From positions 173,510-237,509 of the IMG/VR virus record IMGVR_UViG_2974692648_000001: a DNA stretch of 64,000 nucleotides; one strand, 5' to 3'. This DNA comes from a virus (Duplodnaviria > Caudoviricetes). Position numbers and translations under genes: made by a program. This document shows, piece by piece, positions 10,569 through 64,000 of this stretch (position 1 is the first letter of the stretch; the number at the start of each line of letters is the position of its first letter). The notes under the pieces were generated by a model that ran no database searches, was not told where the DNA came from, and saw only the letters and a list, made by a program, of their open reading frames with translations.

Positions 10569-10970
10569 ATGGAAAACTTCATCTACAATGGGATCAACTA
10601 CATGGACCTTGTGAAAGCAAGCGTTGGTGAACACACTATCTATATCAGTAAATGGGATGTAGAAAAGAAGATCAAAAACGATGTTATTCAACTTACAGAA
10701 GAACGTCCAACTGAGTTCAACACAGAACTCCATATTGAAATTAACTTGACTATTTATTCAAGTGTGATTGTTCATGTGGTTGATTCCTTGCAAGCTCTGG
10801 AGATTGCTAAAGAGCTTTCTTCTAAGCTTAGTAAAGAAGTTACCATTTATTCACATGCTCGTCATTTAGCTCGATTCCTAAAAGGTGAGCAGGTCGGTCA
10901 GGTGAAAACATTGGACGATTTCTATACGAACATCACTGAAGAACAACGAGCACTGACTCGCTTAAAATAA
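10569..10970 (+). CDS. hypothetical protein
   Basis: AAGGA RBS, 133 aa. Confidence 0.7.
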   Translation: MENFIYNGINYMDLVKASVGEHTIYISKWDVEKKIKNDVIQLTEERPTEFNTELHIEINLTIYSSVIVHVVDSLQALEIAKELSSKLSKEVTIYSHARHLARFLKGEQVGQVKTLDDFYTNITEEQRALTRLK

Positions 10971-10985
10971 ACAGAATGCAGAAAA

Positions 10986-11038
10986 CCTCCTACTACCCAA
11001 TGGGTAGTAGGAGGAACCTTTCAGTTTATTTTTTTTTT
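10986..11038. terminator. bidirectional terminator between convergent genes
   Basis: CCTCCTACTACCCA-A-TGGGTAGTAGGAGG inverted repeat; long T tract downstream, A tract upstream. Confidence 0.85.
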
Positions 11039-11049
11039 CGTTCAGGTTA

Positions 11050-50198: not shown

Positions 50199-50347
50199 TT
50201 AAAAACTAAGTGACATGTATTATATGTTACAAAACCTTTTTACCCCATTTTTATTGAACGGTTACTTTGTACTCTAAAATCTTGTTATTTTACCTGTTTT
50301 TTCATCGTTATTTTCACCCCTAAAAGTGAAAGGCGATGGGGAGAAAG

Positions 50348-50425
50348 AGGGGCAAGGTGATAGGGGCAAGGTGATAGGGGTGTCAAGGTTGAGTGGGTGT
50401 CAAGGTTAGTTGGTTCAAGTTAGTT
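50348..50425 (+). repeat. iteron-like tandem direct repeats
   Basis: AGGGGCAAGGTGAT x2, GGGTGTCAAGGTT x2, degenerate TCAAGTTAGTT; followed by a 27-nt pure A/T tract at 50449-50475. Confidence 0.75.
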
Positions 50426-50651
50426 AAAAGATTCGGGCAAAGCCCAAGATAATTAATATTAATATATTAATATATCTAACTATAGAGTATGACTTCCTTA
50501 CAACGTAACGAGTATCACGAGTGAAGTGGTTAAGGTAAAGAGTCATACGTTAAAGGTATAGATACATAGTAGGATGTCCGTTAAGGAGTCCTACTAGGGT
50601 TTATACTGCTTTTTAAATATTTAAGTTAAGATTAATTAAGGTTATTAGACC

Positions 50652-55815: not shown

Positions 55816-55905
55816 AGTTATTTTTCTAACGGACAATATATTATATGTACTAAACTAAATCCGTCGAAGACCCCCTAGAAAGGATGGGAAAGGGTTATTT
55901 TTGCA

Positions 55906-56020
55906 TACGAGTTATAGTAGTACTCCTTAGAGTGATCTATGAGGTACGAATAGTCACGGTGAGTGTTGTAGTACGAAGTACGTAAACACGATAAAAGGAG
56001 TGTACTACGTATAACGAGTA
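55906..56020 (+). other. branched structured non-coding element
   Basis: GTTATA/TATAAC, GTAGTAC/GTACTAC, ACTCCTT/AAGGAGT outer stem with two inner hairpins. Confidence 0.6.
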
Positions 56021-56076
56021 ATGTGATGTACGAGTCCATGTAATAGGGAAATGATCTAGTAGAAAAGAATTTTGGT

Positions 56077-56093
56077 TCTATATTACTTTAGGG
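56077..56093 (+). promoter_or_regulatory. putative phage early promoter
   Basis: TCTATATTACTTTAGGG containing TATTAC. Confidence 0.55.
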
Positions 56094-56152
56094 TAAATAA
56101 AACTGGATCATGTAAGTTATTAGTAAATAACGTTAGTAGGAGTAATTAGGAC

Positions 56153-56932
56153 ATGAGTAAAAGAATTCAACAGATAAAGAATACCAGCTTACACCATTTA
56201 CACGGAATGATCGTTACCGCTAAAGGTAAGCCTTATCGTCAAAACAACATTACGTTTACCGTAAAGGGGAACAAACAAGTACGTTTAACTCGAGCTCAAT
56301 TTTGGTTAGAACATTTAACTAAGCTACGAGAAGGGTTTCCCATCCATTTAGTGGACCAAGCGGAAGAGTTTCATTTCAAAGAAGTCTTATTACCGACTTA
56401 CGAAGACTACGTGGTGTTCGCTCCTTACGTTACTAAGGTGATCAGTTGGGAGGGATTGAACTTATACATCTTACCAGGGTTCTTAGGGAACGCTGTGGCG
56501 GAAGATGGTAAGATCTACGAGCTATACGTGGATGAAAGAGCGAAGCAGTGGTATTGGGGTGAGATCTATCCTAATCAAAACCAATGTTACGATTTGATCA
56601 ACAGTATCGATGGAGATATGTTAGAAGTTAGCACGGATGACATCATCTATTTGTTGAAGTCGTCAGTCGTTACTGGGGATGATTTGAGTGACTACTACGC
56701 TAAGCGTGTAGTGAATCGTCGAGCTGAAGTAGCGTTAGAAGACGGTTGGGTGGATATCGATCCAAAAGACATTCAATCACCAGATCACGTAGCTGCGTTG
56801 AAACACGCTGAAAAAGACAACATGTTAGTCAGAATAGAAGTGAAACCTAAAACCGTCGGAGAGGCTTTCTTGCAAGCTTATCGCCGAGGTGGTTTCGAAG
56901 CACTTCCTTGGGAAGGTCGAATGGCCTCCTAA
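56153..56932 (+). CDS. hypothetical protein (weak NUMOD4-like segment)
   Basis: AGGA RBS; LPGFLGNAVAEDGKIY segment; no intact HNH motif. Confidence 0.65.
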   Translation: MSKRIQQIKNTSLHHLHGMIVTAKGKPYRQNNITFTVKGNKQVRLTRAQFWLEHLTKLREGFPIHLVDQAEEFHFKEVLLPTYEDYVVFAPYVTKVISWEGLNLYILPGFLGNAVAEDGKIYELYVDERAKQWYWGEIYPNQNQCYDLINSIDGDMLEVSTDDIIYLLKSSVVTGDDLSDYYAKRVVNRRAEVALEDGWVDIDPKDIQSPDHVAALKHAEKDNMLVRIEVKPKTVGEAFLQAYRRGGFEALPWEGRMAS

Positions 56933-56938
56933 CCTTAC

Positions 56939-56972
56939 GCCCTACTTGCTTAACGGCAAGTAGGGTTATTTC
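56939..56972 (+). terminator. intrinsic terminator
   Basis: GCCCTACTTGC-ttaacg-GCAAGTAGGGT followed by TATTT. Confidence 0.7.
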
Positions 56973-57005
56973 TACAAACTCAATATAAATCATTAAGGAT
57001 TAATT

Positions 57006-58184
57006 ATGTCCATCGAGTTACCTATCGCTGAAGATCCAATCACAGCATTGACTTTTAAGAACATAGAAAAGTACTATAAGGAAAAGCGGAAGTTTACTGA
57101 TATCGCTAAAATTCAAAAGATTTGTCCCAACGCGATTACCAAACGTTTTGAAATCCAAGGGTTCGAAACCCCGGTGTACTACTTGAAAGAGTTACGTAAA
57201 GAGTTAGCTAAAACTTTAGTCACCGAAGGTGAGCTCTCATTGAGTGAGATAGCAAAAACCCTCGGTTACGATAAGACAATGAATTTCTACGTTTGGTACC
57301 AGTCTGTTTTTGGAGAACGTCCTACTAAAGTGCGAGCAAGAATGGGTCTTAAGTCTAAGACTCCGTGTCTAGGTGTGATCGACGCTATCGCTGAATCTAT
57401 TGCCTCAAAGATCGATCTCAACCCTAACCTTTACAAAAACGCCACTGAGCTCATGGAAGGTCACGAATATAGTGTCGTTTACATTAAGCGCACATTTATC
57501 AAAATGTACGGTAAGACACCTCGAGCTTATTTATTGGACCGACAACTAGAGTACGTTGCAGGCCAAATAAAGAATCACGGTTATAAGGAAAGTCGTTTAA
57601 TGGAAATGACCATGCATAACGCACCTACCGGACTCAATAAGGCTTTCAAAGCTAAGTACGGTATGACGACCAGTGATTACGGTGAATCTTTGTCGATCGG
57701 CACGTGGGCTAAAGTTCATGGTGAAAACGTGTGGGTGATGCCCTCACTTATGGATGAGATCTTGGACAACGTTACTGAGAACTTACTTGACGACCGCTTT
57801 AACCTTTACCAACTAAGAGACTTCTACGGCCTCAACTCACATTCTTGGGAACGAATGTTTAAGCTCTACACAGGCATGCTTCCAAGTAAGGCGCGTCAGT
57901 GTATTCGTTTAGAGTTAATCGTTTACTTCCTGCAAAACACCCGCTGGAAGTTCGCAAAGATCTTGAGAAAGGTTGGTTCTGATTATGAGTATGACGTCAG
58001 ACGACAAATGAAAGAATGTTACGGGTTGACTCCGGTTGAGATCCGTAAACTAAAAGGTCCACTTACCCGCTTTCATAATACGGAACAATTCGTTCGTTTT
58101 GTTAAATCCAACGCCGACCAATGTATCGAAGACGATAAGATTCGCTTAGAGAAAATCAAGGAAATTGAATTATGTACCCCGTAG
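57006..58184 (+). CDS. protein with three tandem AraC/MarA-like HTH domains
   Basis: TP..YL..LR...AK.L.....LSLSEIA..LGY....F...Y...FG..P pattern, repeated at GKTPRAYL...FKAKYGMT and F..YTG..P...YGLTP. Confidence 0.8.
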   Translation: MSIELPIAEDPITALTFKNIEKYYKEKRKFTDIAKIQKICPNAITKRFEIQGFETPVYYLKELRKELAKTLVTEGELSLSEIAKTLGYDKTMNFYVWYQSVFGERPTKVRARMGLKSKTPCLGVIDAIAESIASKIDLNPNLYKNATELMEGHEYSVVYIKRTFIKMYGKTPRAYLLDRQLEYVAGQIKNHGYKESRLMEMTMHNAPTGLNKAFKAKYGMTTSDYGESLSIGTWAKVHGENVWVMPSLMDEILDNVTENLLDDRFNLYQLRDFYGLNSHSWERMFKLYTGMLPSKARQCIRLELIVYFLQNTRWKFAKILRKVGSDYEYDVRRQMKECYGLTPVEIRKLKGPLTRFHNTEQFVRFVKSNADQCIEDDKIRLEKIKEIELCTP

Positions 58185-58897
58185 ATAAAGAATCCAGAAC
58201 TCGTTTAATGGATGATTTGGACAAATGGATAAGTGAACACTACCTAGAAAAAGTCACCGTCAAAGACTTAAGTCATCAACTAGGCGTGTACATTCCAGAT
58301 GTCTACCGTTTGTTTGCCGAGCAACGTAATACTACTCCTGGTGAATACCTTCGACGCAAACGCTTAGTCAAAGCCAAGTCTTTATTGGAGTCAGGAGTCA
58401 GACCAACGTTAGCCGGAGCCCACGTTGGTTATTCTCACTTTCAATCTTTCATCAAAGAGTACAAAGCTTTCTTTAAACGCCATCCTCGTGAGGATTATGT
58501 GGATTCCCTCGAGGTCCCGACTATGGATTCTTATTCTAAAGAAACTATGGACCGATATTATCCTAGTGAGTTGCGTGAGAAGATATTGGATCATTTGATT
58601 AAAAACATCAAAGTTAATTTTAATTACGCTGATGTAGAAAAGAAGTTTGGTTTACCAGATCGTAGCTTAAGCGAAATGTTTGAACACTATTACGGTAAAC
58701 CCTATCGTGAATGGAGAAAGGATACTAGGATGAAATTAGCTAAGGACTTGCTCCACAAAAATCCAAGTATTAAGATTGCTGACTTGGCGACTACTGTAGG
58801 TTCTTGTAGTGCGACCTATTTACGGAAGCAATACCAAGAAGTCTACGGAGTTAATATCGTTGAACTCCGGGAAACTTTGAGAGGCGCGTGTGTCTGA
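58172..58897 (+). CDS. protein with two tandem AraC/MarA-like HTH domains
   Basis: WISEHY...TPGEYLRRKRLVKAKSLL...VGYS...F; second copy GKPY..WR...RMKLAKDLL...KIADLA..VG. Confidence 0.85.
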   Translation: MYPVDKESRTRLMDDLDKWISEHYLEKVTVKDLSHQLGVYIPDVYRLFAEQRNTTPGEYLRRKRLVKAKSLLESGVRPTLAGAHVGYSHFQSFIKEYKAFFKRHPREDYVDSLEVPTMDSYSKETMDRYYPSELREKILDHLIKNIKVNFNYADVEKKFGLPDRSLSEMFEHYYGKPYREWRKDTRMKLAKDLLHKNPSIKIADLATTVGSCSATYLRKQYQEVYGVNIVELRETLRGACV

Positions 58898-59591
58898 TAA
58901 GAAATCCAGAGAGCTCAAGAAACTCAAAAATGCGGCTAAGAAATATTGTCTGGAGCCTAATGCCTCGGAATTAGTTTTAAAGAAAACGAGGATGACTCCC
59001 TCTAAAGTCATTAAAATATTCCGTGATACAGGGGAGGGGAGTTTGTATGATTACATTACCCATTTAAAAATGTTAGAGGCGAAGAAACTCTTAGATGACA
59101 CAGATCTTAACCTAACCTCTATTTCTAGAGCAATTGGGTATGCTAATCATAAATCGTTGAGAGAAAACTTCATCAAACAATTTGGTATGTATCCCTTGAA
59201 TTACCGCAACCGACCGAAGACCAACGACCTGGCTTGGGATTTGTTTAAAACTCATCCCAAGTTAACGGTACACCGTCAGACGTTTTTGCTAGATCATATC
59301 AAGAAACATTACAAAAGTTCTGATTTAAGCATCCAGACTCTATCGGACCGATTCCGTTTAACCCACCAAGAAATAGAACTGATTATCAAACACCATTATA
59401 GATTGGGATTGAAACAACTCTTATTAGACTTGCGTTTAAATCAAGCACATACCAAACTGCCTAATTACTATAAGCCATTGCGTCAACTCGCTGAGGAGTT
59501 AGGCTTCCTTGACTTTAGTTATTTCGTAGCGAAGTTCGAAGGGAAATATGGAATGGGACCTAAACGTTATCAACAACACGCACGTCTTTAA
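58890..59591 (+). CDS. protein with two tandem AraC/MarA-like HTH domains
   Basis: SLYDYI..LKM.EAKKLL.DTDL....IS.AIGY...FGMYP; second LRL.QA...LAEELGF.D.SYF..KF...YGMGP..Y. Confidence 0.85.
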   Translation: MSDKKSRELKKLKNAAKKYCLEPNASELVLKKTRMTPSKVIKIFRDTGEGSLYDYITHLKMLEAKKLLDDTDLNLTSISRAIGYANHKSLRENFIKQFGMYPLNYRNRPKTNDLAWDLFKTHPKLTVHRQTFLLDHIKKHYKSSDLSIQTLSDRFRLTHQEIELIIKHHYRLGLKQLLLDLRLNQAHTKLPNYYKPLRQLAEELGFLDFSYFVAKFEGKYGMGPKRYQQHARL

Positions 59592-59620
59592 ATTAATCTT
59601 TAACTCAGTGTACATTGTAT

Positions 59621-60189
59621 GTGAGCGGTACAAGATTAGGTTTAGCTAGACTAGCGTGTCCGAAAAGAAAAGGTGTATACCGCGAGTCCGACCTAGGAAG
59701 TTATTCCTTCATTACAACCGCTCACAGCTTACTCATATCGTGTTACGAGTATAAAGCGCAGATCGCCACCCCCATGGCGATCACTATTTTCAGTCCAGAA
59801 TGACGACCTGTATCCCTTGTCATCGATGTTAGTTACTTGTTCTGGACTGAACCCTATTTGATCTAATGCCTCCAAATGGTTTTCTCCCTGTGTTACACAG
59901 CCATCACCATTAGGTCAAATAACTAAACGGAAGCCGAGCCTTCTGTTTGTTGGACCGAGTTGCCTTTAACTCCTCGGTCCCCAGCGGTAAACCCCTTGAC
60001 CGCTATAAAAAAAGGAGAGCGTTTTCTGCCAGCTCCAACGCTCCAATAAAGGGATGCTACGCCGAGGCTAGCCGGCTGGGTTTTCGACCGCAAAAGACAA
60101 ATGTCTTTGAGAATCCAGTTCGGGTACTTTCAGCGAGGTACTGTGAAACACTGCTTTGACCATCCCGAAGCCCGGGATGGTACTTTTTT
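59621..60189 (+). ncRNA. candidate large structured non-coding RNA (~570 nt)
   Basis: At least 10 consecutive helices with plus-strand G-U pairs, no RBS-supported ORF, ends in an intrinsic terminator. Confidence 0.7.
60159..60189 (+). terminator. intrinsic terminator
   Basis: ACCATCCCG-aagcc-CGGGATGGT followed by T6. Confidence 0.85.
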
Positions 60190-60229
60190 GCATTTTAAAT
60201 ATTTTAGCTAAACTTTAAAGGAGTTTATT

Positions 60230-61195
60230 ATGTCTACATTACGTGCATGGTGTGTTGGTGGTGCGGGTATCAACATTGGTTCGGCATGGAACAAATCACT
60301 AAGAAATCTACCTTTAGCAAAAGTGGATTTCATTGGTCTAGATACGTCCATGAATAACCGTCCGGATGATGACGCCTTCACTGTCGAATCACCAGCAAAC
60401 ACCCGAGGTGGTGGTAAGAAGCGTACACTTAATCGTGACCTTATCCCAGACTTCGTAAAACAGATGCTTATCAAACACCGTCCAGGTGACTTCAACGTAG
60501 TCATCTACAGTGGTGCAGGTGCGTCAGGTTCTACGATTGGTCCTTACTTGGTTCGTGCGCTTATGGAAGCCGGTGTTCCAGTGGTTTCTTTCTTAGTTTT
60601 GGATCAAACTACAGACATCGAGTTTGAAAACACACTCGCAACCCTTCGCTCTCTGGATGGTCAACGTAAGTATTTCAACCAACCAGTCGTTCTAGATGTA
60701 TTAGAGAACAATGAGCGAATGAATCGTGGTCAGATGAACGAACTCGCGGTAGAGCGATTAAACCTACTCAGCTTGTTCTTAACCGATGTTCATGAGGAAT
60801 CCGACTACGAAGATGTTCGTCACTTACTGAACTACTCTAGTGCGATCGATATTCCACCTGCACTAACTCGTATTGAGTACTATGATGGTCAAACCATCGA
60901 CCAACGTCAAGGTGTTGCAGTAGCGAGTTTCTCTCTTTACTCTCACCGTAACGATATCCGTTCTGTACAGATTGGTAAGAGTTACCGTGTGACAGGTGTT
61001 ATGCACCCAGACACAATCACCCCTAACAAAACAGGTGAGTTACACATGATGTTAGAGTACGATAGTGTGACCGACCAACTTATCGAAGACCTACAGCGTT
61101 CTGAGCAACAAGCAGCAGAGCGTCAAGCACAGTTTCACAAGACCCGTGCTAAAGACCTCACAGAAGACGCTGATGGCGATTCAATGTGCTGGTAA
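60230..61195 (+). CDS. phuZ: phage tubulin PhuZ
   Basis: GGAGINIG, DTS, GGGK.R, tubulin signature variant SGAGASGSTIGP, acidic C-terminal tail; 321 aa. Confidence 0.92.
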   Translation: MSTLRAWCVGGAGINIGSAWNKSLRNLPLAKVDFIGLDTSMNNRPDDDAFTVESPANTRGGGKKRTLNRDLIPDFVKQMLIKHRPGDFNVVIYSGAGASGSTIGPYLVRALMEAGVPVVSFLVLDQTTDIEFENTLATLRSLDGQRKYFNQPVVLDVLENNERMNRGQMNELAVERLNLLSLFLTDVHEESDYEDVRHLLNYSSAIDIPPALTRIEYYDGQTIDQRQGVAVASFSLYSHRNDIRSVQIGKSYRVTGVMHPDTITPNKTGELHMMLEYDSVTDQLIEDLQRSEQQAAERQAQFHKTRAKDLTEDADGDSMCW

Positions 61196-61216
61196 TACCT
61201 AAGTAAGTCTTAACTG

Positions 61217-61263
61217 CGTATGGCATCTTCTAGGTGCCATACGTTTAATATTTATTATTTTTT
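61217..61263 (+). terminator. intrinsic terminator
   Basis: CGTATGGCATCT-tct-AGGTGCCATACG followed by AT/T-rich tail. Confidence 0.75.
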
Positions 61264-61288
61264 AGTTTTATTAAAAACGGGAAGATAA

Positions 61289-62582: not shown

Positions 62583-62889
62583 TCAAGCGGACCTATTGCA
62601 TATCTTTTTCTATACAGCTTATGAAAATGTCGTGAGTTGGGGAAGAGAACAAGCGGTCCAACAAGCACAGTCCGGCATGTTAAGTAACGTACTCCGTGAA
62701 CTTATCCATGGGGATTGTGTGAACGATTTCCCATGGATCCTAGCGGACATGGAATTAAGTGCTATCGGTACAAATATGGTAGAGGATATTGATGACATGT
62801 TGCAATTACATGAACTCACCGCCTACAATCCTCTACCTAACGTAGAAAAACCAAATTCAATGATGTTGGAGCTCACTCATGAATGCTAA
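62506..62889 (+). CDS. hypothetical protein
   Basis: GAGGA RBS, 127 aa. Confidence 0.65.
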   Translation: MLTIYQMQPMADFIQRRCLTDFTTVSQADLLHIFFYTAYENVVSWGREQAVQQAQSGMLSNVLRELIHGDCVNDFPWILADMELSAIGTNMVEDIDDMLQLHELTAYNPLPNVEKPNSMMLELTHEC

Positions 62890-63951: not shown

Positions 63952-64000
63952 CTACCCTACCCTCTATGGGTAGGGTAGTTTCTACCTTCTTATTTTTTTT
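63952..64000 (+). terminator. intrinsic terminator
   Basis: CTACCCTACCC-tctat-GGGTAGGGTAG followed by T-rich tail. Confidence 0.75.

Follow-up and report, generated by a model that had tools for sequence, protein, structure and literature searches.

Organization of the Locus

The window analysed here covers the last 64 kb of a virus record of 237,509 bp with terminal repeats (IMG/VR record IMGVR_UViG_2974692648_000001). Coordinates are those of the window unless stated otherwise, and the features described below all lie on the + strand. Between positions 57006 and 60190, this DNA carries three consecutive genes encoding proteins built from repeated AraC-type DNA-binding domains, named here AraC1, AraC2 and AraC3. 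They are followed by a large gap devoid of open reading frames (ORFs) from which a structured non-coding RNA is encoded. On the left, the unit is bounded by a terminator-like hairpin (56939-56966; 12 pairs, loop of 4) that closes the upstream gene, which encodes a protein of 259 amino acids (aa); alignment indicates that this hairpin is retained in relatives with altered stem letters. On the right, it ends at an intrinsic terminator (60159-60190). The phage tubulin gene phuZ (60230-61195) is a neighbour lying outside the unit. The limits proposed in the initial annotation, i.e., terminators at 56939 and 60159 just before phuZ, were thus correctly placed.

Megablast and blastn comparisons assign the record to the Vibrio jumbo phages of the Aphroditevirus group (Gorgonvirinae). 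Its closest relative is Vibrio phage 2 TSL-2019, with 85.3% identity across 56900-60300. By its sequence affinities, the source phage is a member of the nucleus-forming chimalliviruses and, by analogy with phiKZ, would transcribe its genes with its own sigma-less polymerases.

A Large Structured RNA

According to a crude ORF call, no gap of the genome devoid of ORFs exceeds in length the one that separates AraC3 from phuZ (59592-60229, 638 nucleotides (nt)). Its G+C content reaches 0.45-0.49 compared with about 0.40 in the flanks. On the + strand, its minimum free energy is -199.5 kcal/mol versus -152.5 +/- 6.7 in 20 shuffles, none of which equals it (z -7.0). Refolding of 59592-60229 with 30 shuffles gave a z of -6.4, and folding of the - strand a z of -5.2. 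Homologous gaps are found in the phages 2 TSL-2019, USC-1, Aphrodite1 and phiKT1019 and, more distantly, in the tidunaviruses VP4B, pTD1 and phiKT1028. The RNA is kept in all eight Gorgonvirinae genomes that were fetched, and its nucleotide identity with that of the window amounts to 95% for 2 TSL-2019 and 75% for phiKT1019.

The RNAalifold consensus of the five Aphroditevirus-type sequences contains 140 pairs distributed in 16 helices, with 94.8% of the cells paired. Double-sided changes affect 22 of these 140 pairs against 9.7 +/- 2.2 in 500 column shuffles (0/500 reach 22), counts that should be taken as indicative and not as probabilities because the sequences of the covariation set are few (five to eight) and related, all belonging to one subfamily. 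Sliding the partners by one to three columns left only two to six pairs with double changes. The RNA can be assigned to the + strand because G-U pairs become A-C mismatches when the structure is mirrored: it uses 88 G-U cells, and its mirror image on the - strand leaves 115 cells unpaired versus 35. This asymmetry argues against an element acting purely at the DNA level. It is therefore confirmed that the gap encodes a real conserved structured RNA on the + strand; the large multi-hairpin RNA announced by the initial annotation is borne out both by the fold and by a covariation above that of the controls.

The inferred structured non-coding RNA (59621-60190, about 570 nt) can be divided into three parts. 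The 5' domain D1 (59620-59726) has a branched interior that includes a hairpin with the conserved sequence GGTGTATACCGCG. It is closed by the helix P1 (59620-59629 with 59717-59726), all ten pairs of which are kept across the eight sequences, seven of them with double changes. D1 is followed by the hairpins H3 (59761-59782, two double changes) and H4 (59791-59849, five double changes). The central domain (59852-60053), closed by CCCT/AGGG (59852-59855 with 60050-60053), includes five hairpins (59855-59921, 59924-59949, 59952-59980, 59983-60004 and 60017-60043). In the third of these, four pairs with double changes flank the invariant loop GCCTTTAAC. Downstream, a long irregular 28-bp helix (60055-60140), with the invariant strands AGCCGGCTG and CAGTTCGGGT, covaries across both genera, and several of its G-U pairs are invariant.

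Measured from TATG to the T-run, the length of the RNA varies from 432 to 576 nt among relatives because whole hairpins are present or absent in close relatives. For example, the RNAs of USC-1 and Aphrodite1 are devoid of H3 and its neighbour. The hairpin at 59761-59782 also resembles a weak terminator located within the RNA, the T-run of which is not kept in phiKT1019.

Two other proposals about this block were discarded. A coding function was rejected, as the ORFs of 62 and 70 aa starting with TTG are disrupted by insertions or deletions in relatives. C-rich loops such as GCCTTTAAC, judged by eye, had suggested an anti-Shine-Dalgarno or sponge activity; this idea was dropped since these loops are not conserved in tidunaviruses.

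Promoter-Like Motifs and Terminator of the RNA

At the 5' end of the RNA lies a promoter-like motif of the phiKZ late type, ATTGTATGT (59614-59622), whose TATG would place the +1 at G59621. Alignments reveal that AT..TATGT at 59614-59622 is invariant across both genera, including the sites located outside P1. The extended consensus in this subfamily is A(T/A)T-N-TATGT. Twelve of the 14 copies of ATTnTATGT in the genome are found in ORF-free DNA, which represents 6.5% of this genome. Eight ORFs located after such sites were scanned with PHROGs: three encode head or virion proteins (the major head protein, an internal head protein and a virion structural protein), one encodes the nuclear shell protein, and the other four have no match or a product of unknown function. 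Furthermore, ATTGTATGTGAGC is common to the RNA site and to the site preceding the internal head protein gene. The accessible part of a study of phiKZ describes the late promoter of its non-virion RNA polymerase as TATG, the last G being the +1 (PMC4666361). By analogy, the RNA of the window looks like a late transcription unit of its own, running from G59621 to the terminator near 60190, i.e., about 570 nt.

This intrinsic terminator (60159-60190) consists of a 9-bp G+C-rich stem (60159-60181) followed by the T-run TTTTTT, and would form both the 3' end of the RNA and the right boundary of the unit. Its stem covaries, and the T-run TTTTTTGC is present in 8/8 sequences from both genera. Beyond it, a spacer (60191-60229) that contains a TAAATATTT motif (genome position 233705) and the ribosome-binding site of phuZ is near-identical in the five Aphroditevirus-type sequences, and appears as a separate promoter-like element for phuZ. 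In the same way, a TAAATATT element precedes AraC1 in USC-1 and Aphrodite1. Because TAAATATTT and TAAATATT elements precede them, phuZ and the AraC genes seemingly depend on another promoter class than the RNA. Two further motifs are concentrated in ORF-free DNA: AAATATTT (9/11 genome copies) and TATATTAC (8/8 genome copies), the latter being early-promoter-like in phiKZ. TATATTAC, AAATATTT and ATTnTATGT could serve as working promoter motifs for the Gorgonvirinae subfamily.

A terminator scan found none between the AraC3 stop codon (59591) and the RNA; therefore, read-through from the AraC operon would place the RNA in its 3' untranslated region (UTR). The initial annotation had pointed out that the structured block begins shortly after the last AraC stop codon with no terminator between them. 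This observation stands, but the invariant promoter-like ATTGTATGT intervenes.

The Tandem AraC-Domain Proteins

The three genes located upstream of the RNA encode AraC1 (57006-58184; 392 aa), with three AraC-type DNA-binding domains, and AraC2 (58172-58897; 241 aa) and AraC3 (58890-59591; 233 aa), with two such domains each. Their ORFs overlap by 13 nt (AraC1/AraC2) and 8 nt (AraC2/AraC3). The Pfam family HTH_18 matches three stretches of AraC1 (E 2.5e-25), two of AraC2 (E 3.7e-26) and two of AraC3 (E 1.7e-25), with scores of 89, 91.7 and 89.5 bits, respectively, versus a curated cut-off of 33.6. The multi-AraC-domain proteins described in the initial annotation are thus genuine. All three are assigned to phrog_7620 (PHROGs; E 4.7e-112 for AraC1). 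The DNA-binding domains fill these proteins from end to end, and the N-terminal ligand-binding/dimerisation domain of typical AraC/XylS regulators is absent. All are basic, with isoelectric points of 9.1-9.9 (9.1 for AraC1).

AraC3 is the sole array protein that was modelled. Its AlphaFold model (predicted local distance difference test 90.0; predicted template modelling score 0.51) displays two seven-helix domains joined by a linker of lower confidence, the orientation of one domain relative to the other being uncertain given the latter score. The halves superpose on solved AraC-type domains, i.e., 3lsg_A (TMt 0.86, root-mean-square deviation 1.8 Å), AraC 2k9s (TMt 0.81) and MarA 1bl0_A (TMt 0.73), so that the model corresponds to two AraC DNA-binding domains of canonical fold. 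AraC1-3 are most likely sequence-specific binders of double-stranded DNA; their target would be the DNA of the host or of the phage, and they would function there as transcription or nucleoid factors.

Compared with phiKT1019, the proteins of the window share 31% (AraC1), 50% (AraC2) and 39% (AraC3) aa identity, versus 81% for the protein encoded by the upstream 259-aa gene. Compared with 2 TSL-2019, AraC2 shares 95% aa identity and AraC3 67% (65-72% at the nucleotide level). The genes of the AraC array (57006-59591) are mosaic and are among the fastest-evolving of the region. This pattern of divergence fits recombination together with diversifying pressure, as for genes involved in interactions with the host, and the rapid evolution of such a rare tandem architecture points to a function at the interface between phage and host.

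Searches with AraC2 (tblastn) led to 22 records. Coverage reaches at least 90% of the query in 13 of them, all from Vibrio phages, and does not exceed 44% in the other nine. Comparison of AraC3 with 1.84 billion representative proteins gave 3254 matches at E <= 1e-3 and just seven at E <= 1e-10, all from Gorgonvirinae-like phages or large contigs. Gorgonvirinae and contigs of 17.7-244 kb are the sources of its relatives with two domains over the full length. The accessible text of PMC7824862 mentions AraC-like helix-turn-helix activators in jumbo phages in general terms.

Searches for Known RNA Families and Wider Homologues

No match to Rfam 15 was found at E <= 1 in the segment 56000-61500 of the window, and the RNA is unmatched by the models of GOLLD, ROOL, 6S RNA, tmRNA, RNase P, riboswitches and introns. 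In five relatives searched at E <= 5, Rfam returned only three chance matches, none of them within the RNA. ARAGORN detected no tRNA or tmRNA gene. Neither the RNA nor the AraC arrays are described in the open papers retrieved by literature searches, and the composition of the locus is indeed, as the initial annotation had put it, undescribed in these sources.

Comparison of the gap with 50,697 phage records (blastn) led to eight records, all from Vibrio jumbo phages. A 21-base motif pattern has three matches in IMG/VR, all in Gorgonvirinae. The same pattern has five matches in JGI metagenomes and four in GTDB; these are considered as chance matches because none fits the covariance model R1 at E <= 1. 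None of the five whole chimallivirus genomes searched with R1 (Miami, ZPAH34, FishSpeaker, RisingSun and EL) contains a match. When R1 and R2 were run with filters off on five chimallivirus phuZ loci, the best hit reached 12.5 bits (E 0.19) and lay in a coding region, as compared with 92.8 and 104.4 bits for the positive controls. There is no direct-repeat or iteron array in the gap, where only two families of 10-12 nt with two copies each were detected. Judging from these searches, the RNA is a member of a new family, so far known from Gorgonvirinae only.

Proposed Role of the RNA and Its Possible Relationship with the AraC Arrays

The reading that appears reasonably probable is that the locus encodes a structured RNA of a new family, independent and expressed late, which serves as scaffold or decoy with a partner protein and is located beside a separate AraC operon. 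The locus would then consist of two units. One would be a translationally coupled operon encoding three paralogous, fast-evolving and basic AraC/XylS DNA-binding-domain proteins (3+2+2 domains), and the other a separate gene for the structured non-coding RNA of about 570 nt. Transcription by the non-virion RNA polymerase of the phage would begin at G59621 of the invariant late-type TATG, at the 5' start of P1, and would stop near 60190, where the conserved intrinsic terminator lies. Once folded, the transcript would comprise the 5' domain, followed by a central hairpin domain that is variable and by the long helix of the 3' part. Late in infection, this stable folded RNA would act, most likely, as a scaffold or a decoy for a protein partner.

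Several points weigh against this proposal. The transcription start and the late timing of the RNA are transposed from phiKZ, a distant relative, and ATTnTATGT is likewise found before the gene of the nuclear shell protein, a gene that does not belong to the classical late genes. No RNA run was found to contain the sequence, and the absence of reads (0) in three RNA runs labelled with a related species is no test of expression. The eight genomes belong to one subfamily, in which shared ancestry can lift covariation above that of shuffles, an objection that the slid controls meet only partially. A function of the RNA as scaffold or decoy is itself conjectural. Finally, the RNA remains adjacent to the AraC genes in the three tidunaviruses that have lost phuZ, as a functional link would predict.

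Such a link is the core of the proposal made in the initial annotation, according to which the AraC arrays and the RNA form a single system, either a ribonucleoprotein whose helix-turn-helix arrays bind the hairpins or regulators together with the RNA under their control. As a variant, the regulators could be titrated by the neighbouring RNA or its gene. The parts of this cassette are real. The RNA starts 14-28 nt after AraC3 in 8/8 genomes belonging to two genera, the absence of terminator between them means that read-through would join both in one transcript, the AraC proteins are basic, and RNA and arrays are both restricted to Gorgonvirinae. Furthermore, neither part was found without the other in the searches of phage records by blastn and tblastn, in the pattern searches of IMG/VR, JGI and GTDB, among the protein representatives or with R1 in chimalliviruses. 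However, this co-occurrence is not independent evidence because the whole neighbourhood is syntenic in a single clade, the flanking genes being as syntenic as the RNA and the arrays. The promoter motif of the RNA is of a generic late type shared with head genes. Moreover, the two parts do not evolve in step, whether in module numbers or in rates: the total of AraC domains is seven in every genome while hairpins of the RNA are gained or lost, and the AraC proteins share only 26-50% aa identity where the RNAs share 59-75% nt identity. The AraC3 model corresponds to ordinary DNA-binding domains, and RNA binding is not known for AraC-type domains. AraC activators work through the host sigma-70 polymerase. 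The partnership between the RNA and the arrays is thus unproven and somewhat disfavoured, its functional coupling finding no support in synteny, separate promoter and unequal rates, and a single system appears improbable. A comparably low likelihood is given to the idea that the RNA would belong to the late machinery, as a scaffold or an RNA-protein particle in or at the phage nucleus or as a packaged or assembly RNA, with the AraC arrays perhaps among its partners. Should the arrays indeed be partners, this would represent the first case of RNA binding by the AraC fold, as well as a new kind of phage ribonucleoprotein.

The block could also be mainly a cis-acting untranslated region, i.e., a long structured 3' UTR by which the mRNA of the AraC operon would be stabilised or localised, or a terminator-bearing leader or insulator located before phuZ or before the 97-aa gene that follows the RNA in tidunaviruses. 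This would agree with the strong terminator at the end of the block and the lack of one at its beginning, with the structured gap found near phuZ in phage EL (see below) and with the UTR-derived RNAs, running from a start site to a terminator, that the accessible parts of PMC8545117 and PMC11512511 report for phiKZ and 201phi2-1. However, the TATG motif is invariant even at positions outside P1, and the size and the multi-domain architecture of the RNA far exceed those of a stabilising hairpin. Furthermore, the gene located downstream is not the same in both genera (phuZ or the 97-aa gene) and is preceded by a conserved promoter-like spacer of its own, and the RNA sequence is far better conserved than the AraC mRNA; a purely untranslated region is thus considered unlikely. 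As for DNA-level elements, initiator genes often adjoin their origins. The many inverted repeats of the block and its rank as the longest ORF-free gap of the genome could accordingly be those of a replication origin, of a packaging site or of an array of protein-binding sites recognized by the AraC proteins, the hairpins being then inverted repeats of the DNA. The G-U cells and the loss of pairing in the mirrored structure speak against it, as do the absence of iteron-like direct repeats, the lack of a GC-skew switch at the block, and the promoter-like motif and T-run terminator that frame it on the + strand, so that such an element has very little chance of being the right explanation.

The putative independent late RNA retained here deserves attention beyond its own locus. 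In nucleus-forming jumbo phages, transcription and translation are kept apart, and few studies have dealt with the RNA biology of this group. The RNA described above is multi-domain, reaches about 570 nt, is conserved above most of the neighbouring genes and apparently uses the promoter type of the capsid gene. Nucleus-forming phages thus offer, with this RNA, a concrete candidate for a large RNA with a function, and one that is easy to test. Vibrio jumbo phages of this group are used against Vibrio in aquaculture.

Neighbouring Genes and Other Structured Gaps

In the tidunaviruses VP4B, pTD1 and phiKT1028, phuZ is missing at the corresponding place. The loss of phuZ in this genus is already published, as indicated by the available text of PMC10587174 and PMC11724907. 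In three tidunavirus loci (L008 6903-7045, L009 6912-7056 and L010 6960-7102), the terminator of the RNA directly abuts a homologue of the spacer that follows phuZ in the window (61196-61288), then the 97-aa gene. Because of this direct junction, phuZ and its promoter-like spacer can be considered as a clean presence/absence difference between genomes. The two ends of the record share an identical sequence of about 37 nt with CCCTACCCTACCCTCTATGGGTAGGG (genome positions 35 and 237474, the latter at 63965 of the window). This is the terminal repeat reported for the record; it may result from an overlap in the assembly of a genome that is circularly permuted.

Other ORF-free gaps of the window also display structure or conservation. 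The gap located upstream of the 259-aa gene (55816-56152) shares 97% identity with 2 TSL-2019, 95% with Aphrodite1 and 92% with phiKT1019, and the segment 55800-55999 shares 74% identity even with VP4B. It carries a ATTATATGT motif around 55841, then a hairpin with a T-run, and a TATATTAC motif around 56079. This gap may combine a short terminated RNA and an early promoter. A second one (50199-50651, 453 nt; fold z -5.5) carries ATTATATGT around 50220, imperfect direct repeats resembling GGGGCAAGGTGATA and TAAATATTT near its end, and may be another non-coding unit. The ORF-free gaps 10734-11049 and 62583-62878 have fold z values of -5.3 and -4.2, respectively.

Structured gaps were also observed near phuZ in other phages. 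In Shewanella phage FishSpeaker (L029 1257-1923), a 667-nt gap (z -10.4) carries ATTATATGT near its start and a terminator-like hairpin at its end. In Pseudomonas phage EL (L031 2893-3398), a 506-nt gap located directly before phuZ (z -7.9) includes two terminator-like hairpins. Neither gap matches R1 or R2. Large structured RNAs may be common in chimalliviruses.

Comparison with Known Systems

The ornate RNAs GOLLD and ROOL are often carried by phages, and their function is unknown. Both are Rfam families of large bacterial and phage RNAs, the subject of cryo-EM work (PMC12286853). They resemble the RNA of the window in their size class of several hundred nucleotides, their non-coding nature, their many helices, their long-range closing helices and their conserved internal loops. 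Unlike them, the RNA described here is unmatched by Rfam, is carried by Vibrio jumbo phages and has no tRNA gene nearby.

The AraC arrays are best compared with MarA and SoxS, which have the same complete AraC domain with two helix-turn-helix motifs, are basic and, like AraC1-3, are devoid of a sensor or dimerisation domain. They differ from MarA and SoxS in that AraC1-3 fuse two or three domains in tandem and are encoded by three paralogues in a row, with seven domains in total.

The promoter-like motif of the RNA shares its TATG core with the late promoters of phiKZ. It is here followed by T or G, lies in ORF-free DNA and is also found before the major head gene. It differs from them by the extended form A(T/A)T-N-TATGT.

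Among chimalliviruses, non-coding RNAs have been reported in phiKZ and 201phi2-1; in the accessible parts of the two studies, they are UTR-derived and reach about 100-250 nt (PMC8545117, PMC11512511). The available text of a 2026 review states merely that phiKZ expresses non-coding RNAs (PMC13282480). Like the RNA of the window, these UTR-derived RNAs are intergenic, extend from a transcription start to a terminator close by, are structured and are conserved in position among related jumbo phages. However, as they are described there, they consist of one or two stem-loops, whereas the RNA of the Gorgonvirinae reaches 432-576 nt and is organized in three domains with at least 10 helices.

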